DNA from: Clostridia bacterium DTU065 | GTDB lineage: Bacteria; Bacillota; DTU065 | Length of the DNA: 64,000 nt | NCBI GenBank assembly: GCA_001512545.1 | Contig: LFSI01000083.1 | Coordinates: forward strand, 6,759-70,758 | Direction of reading: 5' to 3' | Part shown: positions 3,190 through 44,659 of the stretch, in pieces | Layout: every line of letters begins with the position of its first letter | Numbering within the stretch: position 1 is the first letter of the stretch | Position numbers and translations under genes: made by a program | Notes under the pieces: model-generated | Told to the model about the DNA's origin: nothing | Databases searched by the model: none | The model's input: only the letters and a program-made list of their open reading frames with translations

Positions 3190-4212
3190 ATGTCGGAGAA
3201 AACCATGCGTGGTGTGTATTTTTCAGGAGAAACCAAGGAAGTTGTAATCAAAGACTATCCCATTCCCCAAATCGGTCCGGCACAGGCTTTAGTCAAGGTG
3301 GAGTGTTCGCTAATTTCGGCAGGCACAGAAACCTTCATGATCGATAGCGCTGCAAAGGACGGCAGAAACCTCACCAACTTGGGCTACCAAGCGGTAGGAT
3401 CAATTGTGGAGAAGGGACCTGAGGTACCCTACGATGTAGGTACAAGAGTGGCAGTGTACGGTGGCCCTTACGTTGCCCACCACGAGTATCTGGCGGTACC
3501 GAGAAATCTCATGGTTCCCCTAAAACCGGAGACGGTCTCTGAAGAAGCAGCGTTTGTGGGCCTTGGTGCCATAAGCATCCACGGGCTGAGAGCGGCAAAG
3601 TTGGAGTTTGGCGAAAGCTGCTGGGTGATCGGACTTGGAACCATCGGTCAGCTCACCGCACAGATCGCTGTCAATGCCGGATATCAGGTGATTGCCACCG
3701 ACTTCGATGAAAAGAAGATCGAGCTGGCAAAAAAGGCCGGTGTGGACTTGGCAGGCCACGCTAAAGAGATCGGCGCCGATGCCATCAAGAGTTTTTTGGG
3801 TCAGGGCGTCGATGCAGTGGTGATGACCGCAGGCAGCAGCTCCGAAAGCCTCGTAAACGAGACGCTTAAAGCGCTCAGACCTGGCGGAAGGTACATTATG
3901 GTCGGCGTATCTCCTCTCAACATCAACAGGGAGATCATGTTCCAGCTAGAAAGTGAAGTTATGGTAACAAGGGCAGGCGGTCCGGGCCGGTACGATCGCC
4001 AGTACGAGCTGCACGGGACCGACTATCCGCTGCAGTACGTTCGCTGGACTGAAGGAAGGAATATGCAGGAGTTCATCAGGCTCTTGGAAAAGGGGAGAAT
4101 CAGCACCAAGGAACTGATTACCCACAGATATCACTTCGAAGATGCCGCAAAGGCCTACGAGATGATCCAAAGCGGCAAGGAAGAGTATATCGGAGTCATA
4201 CTGACATATTGA
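3190..4212 (+). CDS. medium-chain dehydrogenase/reductase (zinc-type alcohol dehydrogenase-like) oxidoreductase
   Basis: 340 aa. GroES-like N-terminus followed by a Rossmann GxGxxG (VIGLGTIGQL). aaaggagg SD 7-8 nt upstream of the ATG. Confidence 0.7.
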   Translation: MSEKTMRGVYFSGETKEVVIKDYPIPQIGPAQALVKVECSLISAGTETFMIDSAAKDGRNLTNLGYQAVGSIVEKGPEVPYDVGTRVAVYGGPYVAHHEYLAVPRNLMVPLKPETVSEEAAFVGLGAISIHGLRAAKLEFGESCWVIGLGTIGQLTAQIAVNAGYQVIATDFDEKKIELAKKAGVDLAGHAKEIGADAIKSFLGQGVDAVVMTAGSSSESLVNETLKALRPGGRYIMVGVSPLNINREIMFQLESEVMVTRAGGPGRYDRQYELHGTDYPLQYVRWTEGRNMQEFIRLLEKGRISTKELITHRYHFEDAAKAYEMIQSGKEEYIGVILTY

Positions 4213-5887: not shown

Positions 5888-6421
5888 ATGCGTCTGTTTT
5901 TAGCTGTCAAAGTTGCACCGGATGTTTGCCGGGAGCTTTCTAGTTGGGCAGATGAGGTGAGTCTGCCCGGAAAGAGAGTGGCTCCGGAAAACCTTCATTT
6001 CACTTTAAACTTCCTGGGCGAAGGCGACCTGGACCAAGTTGCAAGCCGCCTTCACGGAGCTTTTGCTGGGATGGAACCTTTTTCTGTGAGCCTGAAAGGT
6101 CTTGGGGCCTTCTTCAGCAGGGGTGCTCCGAGGGTAATCTTTGTCAAGGTGGACAGAGGCTACAACGAGCTGATCGCTCTGGAGAAGGTCATTTCCGGGA
6201 AGCTTCCGGAGTTCAGAAAGGACAAGCCGTTTATCCCTCACCTCACTGTAAGCCGGCTCAAGGAAGGCTCCGGTGCCAAAGAAGAGGTGGAAAAGCTCAT
6301 TGAAACTTACAAAAAGCGGGATTTCGGCAGCTTTGAGGTGGATAGGGTGATTTTGTTTTCAAGCAACCTGCAGCCTGCAGGGCCGGTCTATACAGTCCAA
6401 GCCCAATGGCAGCTCGGTTGA
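5888..6421 (+). CDS. thpR: RNA 2',3'-cyclic phosphodiesterase (2H phosphoesterase, LigT/ThpR)
   Basis: 177 aa with the two HxT/S motifs of the 2H family (HFTLNFLG and HLTVSRL). Confidence 0.85.
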   Translation: MRLFLAVKVAPDVCRELSSWADEVSLPGKRVAPENLHFTLNFLGEGDLDQVASRLHGAFAGMEPFSVSLKGLGAFFSRGAPRVIFVKVDRGYNELIALEKVISGKLPEFRKDKPFIPHLTVSRLKEGSGAKEEVEKLIETYKKRDFGSFEVDRVILFSSNLQPAGPVYTVQAQWQLG

Positions 6422-6482: not shown

Positions 6483-9400
6483 ATGTCGGAAGTTGACAAG
6501 GCTAAAGAAAAGGCTTTGCAAAGTGCCATCACAGCAATAGAGAAGGATTTCGGCAAAGGCTCGATCATGCGCCTAGGCGAAAACACCGCGATGGATGTAG
6601 AGACCATTCCTACAGGTGCGCTGTCTTTGGACCTGGCACTTGGGGTTGGCGGTCTACCTAGAGGCAGAGTAGTTGAGATCTACGGTCCCGAAAGCTCGGG
6701 AAAAACCACAGTGGCACTGCATGCCATCGCCGAGGCCCAGAAGCTAGGTGGAGTTGCAGCGTTTATTGATGCCGAACACGGTACGACTTGTTGCTAGATC
6801 AAACCCAGCGGCGCTGATCAAAGTCTAGCGGGATCTTTGGTCCTAACTGCATCTTCGAAATGGCTGGGGAAGTGCCAGCCCTGTGACAAGGTTGGGTCAC
6901 ACGCTCTAATACCCCGACGTGCGGCAGTATTTCACTGTGCTGCTGTGCGAAGTTCGGAGAGGTCGGCGAAAATCAGACCTGGAAAGCGGTTAGAGAAGTA
7001 GCCGGGAGTCCATAAAGCTCCTATGACTAAGAACATGAATCCTCGTTGTAAAAGCTCGAAAGGCATCGCAGGTGCGAACAATAAGCCCTGCTCCTTCTTG
7101 TGAGGTTCAGCCTCAGCTGCGTTAAGCGTGTTTAAAGCAGTTGAATTAAACCGTCATAGGTTTTCTGTCTTTGGGCCATCCAACCGTGGGCGCAAAGACG
7201 GCTGACGGGCTAGAGAGGAAGTCTAAGGGAGCCATGCAAGGATAGAAGATGCGGTACAAGTGAACCCCGTCAGAAACTGCTAAGGAGAGTGAACTCCGAT
7301 GGTTCTAAGCAGGAGGAAATGCCTGCTGAAGATGGGGGGCAGCAGCCTGTAGTAGCGATGAAGGGCAGCCGGATGACGGTCCCGGAAACGGGATCGGAGG
7401 GAAAAACTGCCACGAGCGAAGGGGCATAGTCGAAGTAGCTTTTGGTGCTACTTCGATGGAACGCCGCATGCGGGGAAACTCGCACGTGCGGTGTGAAGTG
7501 GGGGAAAAGCGCTTCCTGCGTCCGTAAAACGAACATAGACGCGGAGTGACGCTTACCTATCACTATCATTGAATCCATCCTACGCTAAGAATCTCGGCGT
7601 GGATATCGACAACCTGCTCGTATCTCAGCCGGACACAGGAGAACAAGGTGCGACACGTTTTCGCATAACTGCTCTGTAGCAGGAAAGCGAAGGCAAAGGA
7701 TCGGCCAACTCTTAACCAGATTTGAAAGGTGAAACTCCTTTCCTTAAACCAGGTCCGGGTTTAAGTGTCTAAACCCCTACGTGCAGCGCTTCCTATCGCC
7801 AGGGAGGTTGTGCGAAGCTAGGTAAGGTCGTAATCCGAGTAGCCTAAGGCCAAACGGCTAAGGCGAAAGTGATGCGGGACTCCTTAAAAACGAATCTATG
7901 GTGACGCAGAGGAACCCTCGCCTGAAGCTCAGACAGCTTGTCCGAAAGGCAAGCTCCAGATCAAAAGCTGCGTCTTGTTTGCGGCTTTTGCTTTAACAGA
8001 TAGCTGTTACTGCCTTTAGTGAGTGCGGACCCAATTCACATAAAGGATTTGGCTGAGTAGAGAGGGCACCTAAGGATTCGTAAAACAAGGGATATGGTTA
8101 AGGGAACGTGTGAGGCCCGATAGACGGAGAAGGCGAGGTCAATGAAGTCTATCTGGGAGTCAGCCGTCTCATAGTAGTGATGAATGCCGGGAAACCAGCA
8201 GGAGCGAAGGGGACGAGTCGAAAGGGACGGTACTTATGTCTTTAGTTTACGTCGTCTCATTTAGCCCTTTCGATGGAACGCCGCATGCGGGGAAACCTGC
8301 ACGTGCGGTGTGGAGTGGGGGAAAACGCGGAGCAGAGGCAAAGCGTTACCTATCACTATCACTTGAGATTACAGAGGCTTTGGTACGAAGCGGTGCAGTG
8401 GATATTGTGGTTATCGACTCGGTTGCAGCACTGGTTCCTAGAGCAGAGATCGAAGGCGAGATGGGCGATGCCCACGTCGGCCTGCAAGCACGATTAATGT
8501 CTCAAGCTCTGAGGAAGCTAACAGGCGTAATTGGCAAGACCAAATGCTTGGTTATTTTCATCAACCAGATTCGCGAAAAAGTTGGAGTCATGTTTGGCAA
8601 CCCGGAGGTGCGCTTTGAAGCTTCTCTTTTGTAGAGGCGCCGGGAGTTTCGGTGCCGAAGGCCATGCCCACATGCGAAGCTGCATGAAGCTGGGCGGGAA
8701 TGTGGCGAAAGCTGCTAGCCTCTGATGGACACGGCTACGCGAGGAACCGCTGTTTGAGGTCCGTTGAATGCCAAAAACTTCCCGTTTTCAAGATCTACCC
8801 TCCGGTGTGATCTTGGATGCCCCAAAAGGGCAAGGGACGGACATAGGCGGAGCCTAAATCCATCGTAGAAAGAGCAAAAGAGGGGAACAAAGGAACCTTC
8901 TGCAAGAGCAGAAGGGGCGGAGTTTCCGTAGTAGCAGATAACTGCGAAGGGAAACAGACCGGTCACTCGCAAATAGTAAGGAGGAGATTAAGTGACCTTA
9001 CGAAAGCAGGAGTGGAGGAGCCTGGCAGATGCAGGCAGACTTTACGAAACCATGGCAAGCTTTGAGTTCCTACAAAAATGTGCTAAAGCTCTCAAAATAA
9101 ACGAAAAAACTGCAGCAACTCTTTCTGAGGCGCTGCAGCAAAGGACCTACCGCCCCTTAGGCGGGAACGAAGTAGACACTCTGCTTTTGAAATGTGTCTT
9201 GGACGCGCTTTCAGCGTTGATTAAAGAGGACTCGGGACTGGATCTGTACAGAACTCTAAGGACTCTGGATTTAGCTACCGTACAGATCCAGGTGGAAAAG
9301 CTAGACTTTGCCTGCCTGAAAAAAGAGCTGTTCAAGCTCTTGAAAGAGGCAGTGCCCGACGAAGAATTTGTAGACCTGGTTTGGAAAGGAGCGAAGATCG

Positions 9401-11195
9401 CCGAGGAGGATGTCCTCGAAAAACTCGCTCCGCTTCTCAAACAGAAACATAACGGCGTCCTGATCAGAGGTTGTGAGATGCTGAGTATTTCAGGTGAGAC
9501 AGCACCGGGAAATGGCCGCGATTTTGAGTTTGGGGGATATGCCGTAAAGCTAGAGCCCGACCTCAAGATCCTCCCTGCAAAATCCAGCATTGAAGCCTTT
9601 AAGAGGGATATCAAGAACCTAACAACCAGAAGCAGAGTAGGTTACAGCGTTCGTTTTAGCGCGGTAGAGATCACAAGGAGAATCAGACAGTGGCACGAGA
9701 GCTTTGGTTTTTGCACAGATCGCAAGCTTGGCAGGTATTTGGACAGCTATGTCAGAGAGAGGGTTTACCTCTTGCTTTTGAAAAAGTTTGACAAAGCTGG
9801 CAAGAAAGAAGTCTACCAGCGCTTTATGCTGGGTTATCCAACGCTTGAAGGAGTTACCATTCCTTCAACGCGTCCGGTCGGAGAGCCGTATGCGGGGAAA
9901 CCCGCACGTACGGTTCGGGGAGCGGGAGGCTGATCCCGACTCCACACAACACCAGGCGGAAGAGCACTTAAATTCGTGCGCCCGTAAAAATAGCTGTTGC
10001 GCTATTTGCGGCGTGCTGCAGAATGCTGCAGGAGCAGTCAAGAGACGCCATCCTCTTGTGGACACCAAGCTTACCTGGAAGGGAAACCGGAAGGGGACAA
10101 CAGCATGCTTGGCAAGGCAGGTATCGAGGTTATTCTTCGAGTGCATGCCCTGTCCAGAGATGTACTTTATACGGTCAAGGCTAGACTGCCTGAAACCCAG
10201 GTCGGAGGCCTAAAGTGGGGCTCACACCTTTTGGTGTGATGGAATCACGACGATGTCTTGGAATTTGACATCGGGCTAGATGGTGGGATTCCTCTCGGCT
10301 CGAAAGAGCAAAAGACCGAACGGGTGACCTAAGTAAGGTACGAAAACGTCTGTAGTGCGCTAAACGGGGATTGCCTAAGTCCGAACGCTTAAGTCGCTGG
10401 CTCAAGCTATGGTTTTAGGACCTGAATATCGGATATGGCAACGGAGTTCCCGTAGTAGTCCGAGGCGGTAGGACGGCAAACCGTCCGAACAAGGCATCAT
10501 GCCTCTAGGGAAAGCCCGCCACATGGCGAAGGGGAACAGATTGTCGCATTTCCATAGCATCGGGGTAGGTTAAGTACCTGTCGAGCTCCGAATGATCTGG
10601 AAATGTACAGCTAAAGCGCTGTGTACATCAGCACACAAGTGCTGGACTGATACCCTTTTTACTTAGCAGCTGGACTGTGCTTTAGCCTAGGTTGGACAAT
10701 CGGAGAGCCGTATACATCGAAAGGTGTACGTACGGTTCGGGGGAGGGAAGGAGCAAACCTATTGGGGCAACTCAAAAAGGCGGCTTTTTCCTATCCTACT
10801 ACTCGTCAGTACGCTTGGATATTAGAAGAATTGACTCCATTAAGTCCGGTAATGAAATCATCGGCAACCGCACGAGAGTGAAGGTTGTAAAGAACAAGGT
10901 AGCTCCACCGTTTTTGGTGGCAGAGTTTGATATCATCTACGGAACGGGTATATCTAAGGAAGGCTGCATCTTGGATGTGGCGTCCGATCTGGGAATCGTT
11001 TCCAAGAGCGGCTCGTGGTTTTCCTACGGCGATATGAGACTCGGTCAGGGCAGGGAGAATGCCAAAGAATTTTTGCGGCAGAACCAAGAATTATGCAACG
11101 AGATCGAGAGCAAAGTAAGAGAGAAGGCTTCGCTTCCAGGATACCACGCTCCAGCAGAAGATGATGATGGGGGAAAGGATTATCTAGATGAATGA
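6483..11195 (+). CDS. recA: recombinase RecA, split gene: join(6483..6780,7567..7647,8360..8607,9946..9975,10800..11195)
   Basis: The joined exons are 1053 nt, giving 350 aa plus a stop, in frame across all junctions. Walker [10 protein letters not shown]. Junction contexts are AFIDAEH|[27 protein letters not shown]|[15 protein letters not shown]...VMFGNPE|[10 protein letters not shown]|[15 protein letters not shown], colinear with bacterial RecA. recX overlaps the stop. Confidence 0.9.
6781..7566 (+). mobile_element. group II intron 1 (ORF-less, 786 nt)
   Basis: 5' gtacg. EBS1 candidate cgtgttt (7127-7133) in a hairpin loop pairs with the exon-1 end gaacacg. gtagtag (7349-7355) and gcgaagggg (7416-7424) core motifs. 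D5 acgccgcatgcggggaaactcgcacgtgcggtgt (7461-7494, CGC triad, GAAA loop, 2-nt bulge). 3' end is ttacctatcactat. Confidence 0.85.
7648..8359 (+). mobile_element. group II intron 2 (ORF-less, 712 nt), paralogue of intron 1
   Basis: 5' gtgcg. EBS1 candidate cttgttt (7974-7980) pairs with the exon-2 end gaacaag. gcgaagggg (8204-8212). D5 at 8278-8311 differs from intron 1 only by a shifted wobble pair. Identical 3' end ttacctatcactat. Confidence 0.85.
8608..9945 (+). mobile_element. group II intron 3 (1338 nt, carries degenerate IEP ORF)
   Basis: 5' gtgcg. EBS1 candidate ctccgg (8800-8805) in the loop of the agatc/gatct hairpin pairs with the exon-3 end ccggag. gtagtag (8928-8934) and gcgaaggg (8944-8951). 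D5 gagccgtatgcggggaaacccgcacgtacggttc (9883-9916, AGC triad). D6 ggag-cggga-loop-tcccg-A-ctcc with bulged A at 9939. Ends ...ac. Confidence 0.9.
8992..9933 (+). CDS. group II intron-encoded protein, degenerate RT (no YADD) with retained maturase/X domain
   Basis: GTG start with an aaggagg SD. The maturase-like block is [17 protein letters not shown]...[15 protein letters not shown]...[19 protein letters not shown] remnants are TYRPLGG and [29 protein letters not shown] sits where YADD is expected. There is no En/D domain. The C-terminus [17 protein letters not shown] is D5 read as protein. Confidence 0.75.
   Translation: MTLRKQEWRSLADAGRLYETMASFEFLQKCAKALKINEKTAATLSEALQQRTYRPLGGNEVDTLLLKCVLDALSALIKEDSGLDLYRTLRTLDLATVQIQVEKLDFACLKKELFKLLKEAVPDEEFVDLVWKGAKIAEEDVLEKLAPLLKQKHNGVLIRGCEMLSISGETAPGNGRDFEFGGYAVKLEPDLKILPAKSSIEAFKRDIKNLTTRSRVGYSVRFSAVEITRRIRQWHESFGFCTDRKLGRYLDSYVRERVYLLLLKKFDKAGKKEVYQRFMLGYPTLEGVTIPSTRPVGEPYAGKPARTVRGAGG
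9976..10799 (+). mobile_element. group II intron 4 (ORF-less, 824 nt), paralogue of intron 3
   Basis: 5' gtgcg. EBS1 candidate gaattt (10261-10266) in the loop of the cgatgtc/gacatcg hairpin pairs with the exon-4 end aaattc. gtagtag (10452-10458) and gcgaagggg (10526-10534). Short D4 remnant closed by attgtc/gacaat. D5 gagccgtatacatcgaaaggtgtacgtacggttc (10705-10738). Ends cctatcctac. Confidence 0.85.
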
Positions 11196-11658
11196 TGCCC
11201 TGGCGCTAGCACAAAAGAAAATAGCGCGCCTCATTGCAAGGCGCTACTACAGCGAGTACGAGTTACGGATGAAGCTGAAGGAGTTCTCAAGTGAAGTCCA
11301 GGAAGAAGCAGTAGCGTGGGCAAAAGAGCAGGGCTTCATTGATGATTTGAGGTTCTGTAGGGCGTTTGTTCACGACGCACTGCTTCTCAACCCCCAAGGA
11401 AAAAGATTATTGACCAGAAACCTGGCCAAAAAAGGTATTGAAGGCACAGTTATCGAACAAGTATTGCAAGAGGAGTATCCAACAGAGCTTGAAGTCGAGC
11501 TAGCCCAAAAGCTTGCCGAGAAGTACTCAAGGAGGCTGAAGGCTGGCGACGAAAGGAAGCACGCGAAGCTCTATGGCTATCTTCTAAGCCGGGGATTTCC
11601 TGAAAACATCGTTTACCTTGCGCTCAAGGAGGTAAACCTTGACACTCAAAAAGCTTAA
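11188..11658 (+). CDS. recX: recombination regulator RecX
   Basis: 156 aa. The ATG overlaps the recA stop by 8 nt. Helical-repeat pattern and position immediately after recA. Confidence 0.75.
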
Positions 11659-11762
11659 GGAATATAATAATATTTGGCTATCTTTGATTAAAAACTGAAG
11701 ATGGACAGGTGTGTCAAGTAATGAACGGATAAAGAAACCCAAGGAAAGGTCCCCGGAGGGGG

Positions 11763-13313
11763 GTGAAAACTGGATATATGTTACTGATTGTAGTTACAGC
11801 GATTATTGCTCTTCTACTGGGCGCCGTCTTAGGTTACTTCATTAGAAAAGCAACGGCAGAGGCAAAGATCAAATCAGCCGAGGAAGAAGCCGTTCGCATA
11901 GTTGAAGAAGCTAAGAGGACAGCTGAGAACAAAAAACGTGAAGCTCTGATCGAAGCAAAGGAAGAAGCTCAGAAGCACAAAGCTGAGATCGACCGCGAGA
12001 TCAGGGAAAGACGCCTAGAGATTCAGCATACCGAAAGACGTCTTCTACAGAGAGAAGAAGTCTTAGATAGACGTACTGATAATTTAGAGCGTAAAGAAGA
12101 AGCTGTAGCCCGCAAGGAGGCGGAACTGAAGAGACAAAAGGCCGAGCTCCAAGAGCTCTATGACAGGCAGATTCAAGAGTTGGAAAGACTGGCTAATCTC
12201 ACCAGCGATGAAGCCAGAGAATTGCTCCTCAATCAGGTTCGCGAAGAAGTCGAAGGCGATATGGCCCGCATTATTCGCGAAGCTGAGGAAAGAGCTAAAG
12301 AAGAGAGCGAAAAGAAAGCTCGAGAGATTGTTGCCACAGCCATTCAGCGCTGTGCAGCGGATCACGTGGCCGAGACAACTGTTTCGGTGGTTGCTCTGCC
12401 CAACGACGAGATGAAAGGCCGCATCATCGGACGCGAAGGTCGCAACATCAGGGCACTGGAGTCGCTCACAGGTATCAACCTGATCATCGACGATACTCCA
12501 GAGGCTGTGATTCTGTCTGGATTCGATCCCATCAGGAGGGAGATTGCCCGTCTTGCTCTGGAGAAGCTGATTCAAGATGGACGAATCCATCCTGCCCGCA
12601 TCGAGGAAATGGTAGAGAAGTCGCGGAAGGAAATCGAAAGCGTCATCCGCGAGCAGGGTGATCAGGCAACCTTTGAAGTTGGCGTTCACGGCTTGCATCC
12701 CGAGCTGGTGAAGTATATTGGAAGGCTCTACTATAGAACCAGCTATGGACAGAATGTCCTGAAGCATTCTATAGAGGTTGCTCATTTAGCAGGCCTAATG
12801 GCCGCCGAACTGGGCGTAGATGTCAATGTAGCGAAGAGAGCCGGACTCCTGCACGATATTGGTAAGGCTGCCGATCAGGATGCTGAAGGCACCCACCACC
12901 AGATCAGTGGCGATTTGGCCAAACGCTACAGAGAATCGCATGAAGTTGTTCACGCGATTTTGGCCCACCACGGTGATATCGAGTTCAAGACTGTTGAGGC
13001 AGTTTTGGTTGCAGCAGCAGATGCTATCAGCGCCGCAAGACCGGGCGCCAGAAGAGAGACACTTGAGTCATATATTAAGCGTCTAGAGAAGCTTGAAGAG
13101 ATAGCCGATGGTTTCGATGGTGTAGACAAATCCTATGCGATTCAAGCTGGACGCGAGATTAGAATCATCGTCAAACCCGAGCGGATCGACGATACCAAAA
13201 GCGTGCTGCTTGCTCGAGACATCTCTAAGAAAATCGAGAACGAGCTCGAATATCCAGGACAGATTAAAGTCACCGTTATTCGAGAAACACGCGCTGTTGA
13301 ATACGCGAAATAG
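11763..13313 (+). CDS. rny: ribonuclease Y
   Basis: N-terminal TM helix, long charged coiled coil, KH domain ([15 protein letters not shown]), HD domain (LLHDIGKA...HH). 516 aa. Confidence 0.95.
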
Positions 13314-13463
13314 GTTTAAGCGGAAGGGCATCCTTCCGCTTAATTTTCAATGTGGACAGCGGTACATAACTGGAAAAGTGCCTATACAAGATCAAGGTGT
13401 TTTTAGGTTATACTTTTAGCAGGTTTTAGGAAGATTTTTTATCTGCTGTTGGGAGGAAGTCAA

Positions 13464-14631: not shown

Positions 14632-14648
14632 GTTGAGGAACGGACGCC

Positions 14649-14678
14649 AAAGGGACAGGTAACCATGCCTGTCCCTTT
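14649..14678 (+). terminator. terminator-like hairpin after spoVS
   Basis: aaagggacagg-taaccatg-cctgtcccttt. Weak T tract. Confidence 0.5.
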
Positions 14679-15003
14679 GACATTTTAAAGACTGAGCCAA
14701 GAAAGAAGAACCTTGAGCCTTTGTCCGTAAAAAAGAGGGGCTGCAAACCGCTTCTTGCAAGTGCCGATGACCGCCCTTGTTAAGGATGCGTTTCAAGCAC
14801 CGGAACTGGAGAAGATAATCCAGCAGACGGATGTAGCTGCGTTGCACGCAAAAGCAGCGCATTTTTACTGCGGAGAACCCCTAGCTTTTTTGCAGATCGG
14901 GCACAAATTATGCAAAATCGCCGCAATAAATTAAGGAAATAACCAAAACACGGAGAATAGGTAGGTAGGAGGAAAAATCCCACAAGAAGGAGAGGTTCAA
15001 ACC

Positions 15004-44581: not shown

Positions 44582-44659
44582 CGGGCTGTGGCGCAGCTTG
44601 GCTAGCGCGCTTCCTTGGGGTGGAAGAGGTCGCTGGTTCAAATCCAGTCAGCCCGACCA
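44582..44659 (+). tRNA. tRNA-Pro (anticodon GGG), CCA encoded
   Basis: Cloverleaf by hand. Acceptor cgggctg/cagcccg, D arm gcgc...gcgc, anticodon stem cttcc/ggaag with loop ttGGGgt, T arm gctgg-ttcaaat-ccagt, discriminator A plus CCA. Confidence 0.9.

Follow-up and report, generated by a model that had tools for sequence, protein, structure and literature searches.

Bacterial group II introns are, as a rule, selfish retroelements that last only a short time and stay away from essential genes. The recA gene described here, from an uncultured, spore-forming member of the Bacillota that is abundant in anaerobic-digester assemblies, holds four of them. It lies at positions 6483–11195 of a stretch of 64,000 nucleotides (nt) from Clostridia bacterium DTU065, contig LFSI01000083.1; we call the whole of this 64-kb stretch the window. 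The four introns (I1 to I4) divide the gene into five exons; the interval 6781–10799 opens with the first base of I1 and closes with the last base of I4. Only I3 contains an open reading frame (ORF), and its product appears to be a reverse transcriptase (RT) that has lost its catalytic residues while keeping a maturase domain. Several introns with a single, RT-dead protein in one gene are typical of chloroplasts; in bacteria this is rare, and our literature searches found no earlier description of it for recA. The features of the gene are the following (D stands for intron domain; the letters of the insertion sites are defined further below):

6483–11195, plus strand: recA, five exons and four group II introns
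6483–6780, plus strand: recA exon 1, codons 1–99 and the first base of codon 100
6781–7566, plus strand: intron I1 (site a), 786 nt, ORF-less, 5' GUACG, 3' AU, CGC-triad D5 class
7567–7647, plus strand: recA exon 2, 81 nt
7648–8359, plus strand: intron I2 (site b), 712 nt, ORF-less, 5' GUGCG, 3' AU, class of I1
8360–8607, plus strand: recA exon 3, 248 nt
8608–9945, plus strand: intron I3 (site e), 1338 nt, 5' GUGCG, 3' AC, with the sole ORF, of 313 amino acids (aa)
8992–9933, plus strand: I3 intron-encoded protein, 313 aa, GTG start, GGAGG located 8 nt before it; the ORF continues across D5 and reaches into D6
9946–9975, plus strand: recA exon 4, a 30-nt micro-exon between I3 and I4
9976–10799, plus strand: intron I4 (site f), 824 nt, ORF-less, 5' GUGCG, 3' AC, apparent derivative of an LtrB-like intron (mitochondrial-like, ML; group IIA)
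10800–11195, plus strand: recA exon 5, stop codon included

When the five exons are joined in silico, a 1053-nt open frame is obtained that encodes a complete RecA of 350 aa. This exact protein was found in a public protein collection, and the joined exons are identical in sequence to intron-less public contigs that are discussed below.

The four introns can be recognized as group II ribozymes by several independent features. The Rfam model of D5 and D6, RF00029 (gathering score 40), gives four matches of 56–70 bits, which end at 7566, 8359, 9945 and 10799 (56.3 bits for I1, 57.8 for I2, 69.6 for I3 and 62.2 for I4). Of the Rfam families for D1–D4, RF02004 matches I1 at 6842–7016 with 49.8 bits and I2 at 7704–7888 with 32.3 bits, slightly under its gathering threshold; none of them matches I3 or I4 even at E = 1. 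Assignment of the intron class from Rfam was dropped because its D1–D4 models carry no mapping to intron classes. All four introns have a 34-nt D5 hairpin with an AGC or CGC triad, a two-nt AY bulge and a GNRA loop, and they show the group II ends (5' GUGYG, 3' AY) with a bulged D6 adenosine 7–8 nt from the 3' end, at −8 in I1 and I2 and at −7 in I3 and I4 according to the Rfam alignments. The 5' end is GUGCG in I2, I3 and I4; I1 has the variant GUACG (6781–6785) instead of the GUGYG consensus, and this variant is retained in its ortholog of the sister species L025 (3696–3700). The elements located within the introns, among them the exon-binding sites (EBS), are listed here:

7127–7133, plus strand: I1 EBS1, CGUGUUU, pairs with the last 7 nt of exon 1, GAACACG (complementarity search)
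7461–7494, plus strand: I1 D5, 34 nt, CGC triad, AC bulge, GAAA loop
7974–7980, plus strand: I2 EBS1, CUUGUUU, pairs with the end of exon 2, GAACAAG (complementarity search)
8278–8311, plus strand: I2 D5, CGC triad
8769–8775, plus strand: I3 putative EBS2, UGCCAAA, pairs with exon positions −15 to −9, UUUGGCA
8800–8805, plus strand: I3 EBS1, CUCCGG, in a hairpin loop, pairs with the end of exon 3, CCGGAG
8919–8958, plus strand: I3 D3, GGAGUUUCCGUAGUAG...GCGAAGGGAAACAG
9883–9916, plus strand: I3 D5, AGC triad, matches the family consensus
10261–10268, plus strand: I4 EBS1, GAAUUUGA, pairs with the end of exon 4, UUAAAUUC
10705–10738, plus strand: I4 D5, AGC triad, upper helix UACAUC/GGUGUA

A first-pass annotation of this DNA had quoted the triads and the upper helices of D5 correctly: D5 begins with A-CGC in I1 and I2 and with G-AGC in I3 and I4, and the upper helices are UGCGGG/CUCGCA in I1, UGCGGG/CCUGCA in I2, UGCGGG/CCCGCA in I3 and UACAUC/GGUGUA in I4. 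It had also described them as compensatory, which is true for the double changes of I4, while I1, I2 and I3 differ from each other by replacement of G-C with G-U wobble only. Its argument that there is selection on functional ribozymes is borne out by a set of 16 distinct D5s, formed by this locus, its orthologs and two RT-bearing relatives, in which 100% of the cells are paired and 9 of the 14 pairs have changes on both sides, a result equalled in 0 of 500 shuffles. Each of the 20 introns examined forms all 14 pairs.

The pairing between introns and exons points the same way. An EBS1 of 6–8 base pairs is present in every intron, and it tracks the insertion site and the exon substitutions across six sites and six species. 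For the EBS2 of I3, a U-to-C change of the exon in the related species L029 is matched by an A-to-G change of the intron, and for the EBS1 of I4 in L025 GAAUUU pairs with AAGUUC. When I4 was checked for recognition of its 3' exon in the IIA manner, through a delta-delta' contact next to EBS1, the base 5' of EBS1 was found to be G and the first exon base U, so that only a wobble pair is possible. The D1–D3 region of I3 is compact (about 384 nt), and the consensus fold of six I3 orthologs has 117 pairs, 25 of them with compensatory changes. Covariation and exon pairing thus support the view that I1–I4 are functional ribozymes under selection. Exon 4, the micro-exon at 9946–9975, must accommodate both the stretches bound by I4 and the contact that I3 makes with its 3' exon; L025 is arranged in the same way.

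All homologs of the I3 ORF are encoded within recA, after the E209 codon, in metagenome-assembled genomes of uncultured "Bacillota bacterium" hosts, and in each of them the neighborhood consists of addAB, a LigT-like gene, recA, recX, rny, ymdB and spoVS. Exon and D5 mapping was used for comparing the window species with its sister species L025 and with L028, L021, L029 and L026, with the following result:

Insertion sites, in RecA numbering of the window: a, A100; b, A127; c, A170; d, E199; e, E209/T210; f, F219/Y220
Sites occupied in the window species: a, b, e, f
Sites occupied in the sister species L025: a, b, e, f
Sites occupied in L028: b, c, e
Sites occupied in L021: b, c, d, e
Sites occupied in L029: b, c, e
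Sites occupied in L026: c, e

Each species has, therefore, two to four introns in recA, at six sites overall, and site e, that of I3, is occupied in all six. Between the window species and L025 the synonymous divergence of recA is saturated (pS 0.79), with a nonsynonymous divergence pN of 0.07, and the introns are 79% (I1), 81% (I2), 70% (I3, with 85% in its non-coding 5' part) and 72% (I4) identical. To judge from these divergences, the recA introns have been kept for long enough that synonymous sites between species became saturated.

The protein encoded by I3 is peculiar. Pfam recognizes in it only GIIM (E 2.7e-6) and no RVT_1, and TIGR04416 matches the C-terminal part in 8/8 members of its family. 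A profile search against the PDB matches only residues 267–361 of the E. rectale IIC RT/maturase 7uim, which comprise RT motif 7 and the thumb, and a search of 1.84 billion representative proteins found no relatives of the N-terminal 150 residues beyond the family. The AlphaFold model (pLDDT 81, pTM 0.73) gives in Foldseek significant matches that are all group II RTs and that extend over roughly the whole length. In the alignment of eight members there is no YxDD and no invariant Asp at the position of motif 3; a maturase (X/thumb) domain is present, then, and an RT active site is absent. By sequence and predicted structure, this protein is a shrunken, degenerate RT without catalytic residues that has kept its maturase domain, and for this reason it could aid splicing but not drive mobility. 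The family is small, with homologs of 304–316 aa at 53–61% identity. Between L028 and L021 the ORF shows pS 0.46 and pN 0.089, which indicates purifying selection, and both halves are constrained. We infer that the protein is an active maturase. Its GGAGG and GTG start sit inside a predicted D4 hairpin. Classification of I3 from its protein was tried and given up, since the nearest full-length matches span mixed classes and outside its own cluster there are only weak matches to the X domain.

Which protein, if any, assists the three ORF-less introns is a question with two main answers. One is that the dead-RT maturase from I3 has become a shared helper in the splicing of the ORF-less recA introns, which belong to two other, unrelated classes; we offer this as a tentative proposal, on the doubtful side. 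The other answer, to which we give somewhat less than an even chance, is that the splicing of the ORF-less introns is independent of the I3 protein, either because they self-splice or because full-length introns of the same two classes, located elsewhere in the genome, encode cognate RT/maturases. Bacteria usually show the latter situation: their ORF-less introns are nearly always found in genomes that have related introns, whose proteins may act in trans (PMC4424553). In addition, maturases are usually specific to their own intron, no D4a-like element is common to I3 and the other introns, and Firmicutes commonly harbor RT-bearing relatives of both classes. Against such independence, there is no RT ORF within the 64-kb window; 6/6 species with ORF-less recA introns retain the I3 ORF under purifying selection; and the ORF-less introns, whose hosts have saturated synonymous sites, outlast the usual mobile RT copies. 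None of these points against independence is decisive.

Evidence for splicing comes from six public contigs of the Joint Genome Institute (JGI; samples 3300002376, 3300002377, 3300002378, 3300002392, 3300002406 and 3300003306), which lack all four introns and have 0 mismatches to the predicted spliced coding sequence and its junctions. Over flanks of 3–7 kb they are 99.9–100% identical to the window, and their genes are all on one strand. Two of them end at 13307 and 13320, by a hairpin at 13316–13343 after rny, and three at 14645, 14652 and 14656, by a hairpin at 14648–14679 after spoVS. Since five of the six end at intrinsic terminators, as transcript assemblies do, they are probably cDNA, and most likely they record splicing in vivo. 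It could be argued that they are genomic DNA of a strain that lost the four introns, for example through recombination with cDNA. One contig, with 15.4 kb and twelve genes, is rather long to be an assembled transcript, and a literature search with the six sample numbers found nothing on the type of sample. We consider such a loss improbable, in view of the near-identity of the flanks to those of the intron-containing strain, the single orientation of the genes and the contig ends at just two terminators. Moreover, the intron-less form is confined to six samples of a single JGI series, versus about 550 data blocks with the intron-containing form, and loss mediated by cDNA would itself need accurate splicing.

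As for the origin of the introns, the first-pass annotation had proposed that two lineages, one with a CGC triad (I1 and I2) and one with an AGC triad (I3 and I4), colonized recA and that each was then copied to a second site of the gene. As a whole we find this very hard to sustain, and its two halves fared differently. The kinship of I1 and I2 is real. As it had noted, 7455–7503 and 8272–8320 are nearly identical (46/49), and both introns end with the same 14 nt, TTACCTATCACTAT. The homology goes beyond D5 and extends from end to end: RF02004 matches both introns, their global alignment has z = 16 against shuffles, and an nhmmer family profile matches both over its positions 1–636. In fact, the introns at sites a–d constitute one family, with a CGC triad, a common D6 and 3' end, full-length alignment and end-to-end profile matches. 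The profile also covers the ribozyme of the C. botulinum pCB111 intron (E 8e-43) and the Metabacillus pB218 intron (E 3e-27), relatives that combine a CGC D5 with RT+HNH proteins of 624–630 aa. The CGC triad, the D6 sequence and a 3' end of the form ...CCUAUCRC.AY are common to I1, I2 and their mobile relatives; the triad is found in 38/39 distinct D5s of the latter and, therefore, marks that class as a whole. Unlike the mobile introns of pCB111 and pB218, I1 and I2 are ORF-less, with a short D4 and an EBS adapted to recA.

Copying of I1 into I2, or the reverse, is another matter. A comparison on 452 profile columns gives I1 64% identity with the C. botulinum plasmid intron and 57% with I2; orthologs of the same intron in the window and L025 reach 86%. 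In a neighbor-joining tree, built on RNA sequences that are saturated, a clade of I1 and I2 was recovered in 0/200 bootstraps, and so was a clade of all recA introns (0/200). A sister relationship of I1 and I2 that leaves out the mobile RT-bearing introns is, then, not recovered. Because I1 is nearer to the C. botulinum intron and the clade with I2 is never recovered, the comparison favors independent colonization by related mobile introns rather than copying, an alternative that the first-pass annotation had also mentioned. The insertion sites, GAACACG|CAUUGA for I1 and GAACAAG|CACUUGA for I2, are alike, as the copying proposal would have it; look-alike targets GAACA[C/A]G|CA are also consistent with independent colonization by related mobile introns. 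Spread within the gene is supported for other members of the family: in sister species the introns at RecA codons 127 (site b) and 170 (site c) form a clade with 100% bootstrap, as expected if a second site was occupied from the first.

A further point in favor of copying is that I1 and I2 have in common a C7-G28 pair of D5 that is absent from the L025 orthologs and from 39 distinct D5s of relatives. Near-identical D5 regions in introns that are 57% identical overall suggest short-patch gene conversion or parallel change in this species. The choice of AC or AU in the D5 bulge was considered as a sign of concerted D5 evolution across lineages within a genome and rejected as weak, both being common in the class (16 vs 22); the C7-G28 pair of I1 and I2 is the one feature that stands out. 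Outside recA the class is common: a single metagenome scan with a D5/D6 pattern that left out the recA sites gave at least 120 places with introns of this class, of which 92 have an RT ORF and none lies in recA. The proteins of these introns are 27–48% identical to the reference; since the matches are diverse mobile introns of other organisms, the scan says nothing about this genome. A search for ORF remnants in the ORF-less introns matched only translated D5, apart from a weak HNH-like match in the site d intron of L021. This intron (3248–4138, with a GUGUG start) is the longest ORF-less member of the family, and its D4 has a weak remnant like the HNH C-terminal C..CH..H (E 0.58), which is consistent with deletion of the ORF from an intron containing an endonuclease (En) domain and was not relied upon.

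The second pair, that of I3 and I4, does not hold. They have in common an AGC-type D5, whose lower helix is simply the Rfam family consensus, and the 16-mer GGAGTT[T/C]CCGTAGTAG, which was quoted correctly and occurs within the window only at 8919 and 10443; the second motif quoted for them was one change off, reading GCGAAGGGAAACAG in I3 and GCGAAGGGGAACAG in I4. Reciprocal nhmmer profiles of I3 and I4 find nothing outside D5 except a D3 segment of roughly 25–40 nt (E 0.08–0.3), and the I4 profile detects I3 around D5 only. Hence the question whether the likeness stops at the D5 core is answered by a yes for I3 and I4, apart from the D3 motif, and by a no for I1 and I2. The shared motif is a real, conserved D3 element. 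It is nearly identical in the ML relative of I4, and it is also carried by I3 orthologs of species without I4, so that it was not copied from I4.

The relatives of I4 are found elsewhere. Its profile matches, unlike that of I3, a Metabacillus intron of ML/LtrB type (L031) over D1–D3 (E 3e-31) and over D5/6 (E 5e-12). The protein of L031 aligns with LtrA (5g2x) at E 3.6e-159 over residues 6–600 and has Intron_maturas2 and AI2M-HNH domains; being LtrA-like over its full length, it places I4 among the mitochondrial-like/IIA introns. On these alignments I4 derives, with loss of the ORF, from an LtrB-like (ML/IIA) intron. The profile of I3 finds no match in L031, and the DNA of I3 has no match among plasmids. 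By these searches I3 is an orphan lineage, seen only at this recA site. Present there in all six species, it is an old resident. The maturase types differ as well, GIIM in the I3 protein vs Intron_maturas2 in the protein of I4's relative. Since I4 matches an ML intron, I3 matches nothing else and the maturase types are different, three intron lineages must be counted, not two: of the earlier proposal, one class occurring twice (I1 and I2) is what stands.

That recA might be a decaying pseudogene broken by dead mobile elements, as its fragmentation by gene callers would suggest, has hardly any probability, given that the frame is perfect once the introns are removed, that RecA shows pN 0.07 vs pS 0.79, that the ribozyme cores are intact with covariation, that the arrangement is conserved in six species and that the spliced product is in public data. 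The fragmentation itself is of some practical interest. In this DNA recA is annotated by gene callers as three or four pieces, and automatic calling breaks it (6483–6797, 8236–8634 and 10692–11195; loci L001–L029) in every public assembly of these species, the calls being separate RecA_N/RecA_C pieces, three or four per recA. Because gene calling splits the gene, marker-gene pipelines would count RecA as absent or incomplete in this clade, a warning for other intron-split genes.

The account that we prefer, and of which we are rather confident, is that four introns from three sources, immobile and vertically inherited, are spliced to give a normal RecA. According to it, recA would be transcribed as a precursor with four group II introns, each of which would fold as a ribozyme, locate its own 5' exon through pairing of EBS1 with the intron-binding site IBS1 and be excised, yielding the mRNA for the normal 350-aa RecA. 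I1 and I2 would descend, with loss of the ORF, from common mobile Firmicute introns with a CGC-triad D5 and ~625-aa RT + HNH proteins, and I4, again with loss of the ORF, from an LtrB-like intron of the mitochondrial-like, IIA type. I3 would be the old resident that brings the sole protein. All four introns would now be immobile, limited to splicing and passed on vertically, held by selection because recA must be expressed. Of this account, we regard as shown how the introns are built, how they pair with their exons, to which lineages they belong, that purifying selection acts, and that the exact spliced product occurs in public data.

Several points weigh against this account or parts of it. 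The analysis covers 64 kb of the genome, and cognate maturases could be provided by RT-encoding introns in other parts of it. In I3, the D4 hairpin with the Shine-Dalgarno sequence and the start codon shows no structural likeness to D4 of I1, I2 or I4, so there is no direct sign of a common maturase-binding site. The tree that separates I1 from I2 suffers from the saturation mentioned above. The intron-less contigs, probably cDNA, might still come from an intron-less strain. Finally, the family of I1 and I2 is probably class B of Zimmerly, a label suggested by indirect features: the En domain, the Firmicute host and intron-encoded proteins that lack the Pfam maturase and HNH domains marking ML proteins. 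The best PDB match of the proteins of these relatives is LtrA, in the RT part only, with E about 1e-50, barely above class IIC RTs. Class B introns are confined to Firmicutes according to one review.

A few other features of the surroundings can be mentioned. Directly upstream of recA in 6/6 species there is a LigT/2H-phosphoesterase gene (5888–6421 in the window; 2',5' RNA ligase family by Pfam). Its position may be ordinary for Clostridia, and it is curious beside a gene that would yield four 2'-5' branched lariats. A perfect sigma-70 consensus (TTGACA, 18 nt, TATAAT; 12/12) is found at 11639–11668, at the end of recX, where it overlaps the recX stop upstream of rny. The hairpins after rny (13316–13343) and after spoVS (14648–14679) are strong terminators. 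The only other RNA-family match in the window is a tRNA-Pro (GGG) at 44582–44659.

The closest precedent for this recA is Trichodesmium erythraeum, for which multi-intron genes, ORF-less group II introns and a trans-acting maturase are described in Meng et al. 2005, as cited in PMC4649490 and PMC4424553. There too a bacterial protein gene holds several group II introns, mostly ORF-less, some intron proteins are reduced to the maturase part, and splicing relies on the ribozyme itself or on a common maturase. Unlike Trichodesmium, the host here is an anaerobic Firmicute and the gene recA, the introns are not similar copies but members of three unrelated lineages, the sole protein of the gene is, by its sequence, a catalytically dead RT, and the arrangement is inherited across at least six species. 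A group II intron within the housekeeping recA of a Firmicute has been reported for Geobacillus kaustophilus, in the form of a single RT-encoding intron (Chee and Takami 2005, as cited in PMC4424553 and PMC2504315), whereas the present gene has four, and not one of them encodes an active RT. I4 resembles Ll.LtrB of Lactococcus lactis and other ML (IIA) introns, as it aligns with an ML intron over D1–D3 and D5/6 and its D3 is nearly identical; unlike Ll.LtrB, it lacks the whole ORF and resides in a chromosomal housekeeping gene instead of a gene of a conjugative element.

The comparison with organelles is, in our opinion, the most instructive. As in the chloroplast trnK intron with MatK, a protein without RT motifs that has kept domain X is housed in one intron, and as in plant organelles many ORF-less introns reside in essential genes, vertically inherited and limited to splicing (PMC4424553). 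Unlike those systems, the present one belongs to a free-living bacterium, its ribozymes are non-degenerate, with canonical D5 and exon pairing, and the service of the I3 protein to the other introns is only a proposal. According to Zimmerly and Semper 2015 (PMC4424553), ORF-less introns are rare in bacteria, one bacterial intron has a degenerate protein, and immobile derivatives seem not to persist in bacteria. What is known in our case is the ordinary group II ribozyme; what is unusual is the organelle-like state in a free-living Firmicute.

We think that the meaning of the finding lies in this state. A clade of uncultured Bacillota appears to keep two to four immobile recA introns of three lineages, which amounts to an organelle-type intron lifestyle, often invoked as a step toward spliceosomal introns and met here in a free-living bacterium. 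The abundance of the organism in biogas reactors makes it accessible as a test of whether one maturase can serve unrelated introns. If the I3 maturase were indeed common to them, it would be a bacterial counterpart of MatK or nMat, RecA production would possibly depend on splicing, and the gene would represent, in a free-living prokaryote, a step from selfish retroelements to introns retained by the host with a trans-acting protein.

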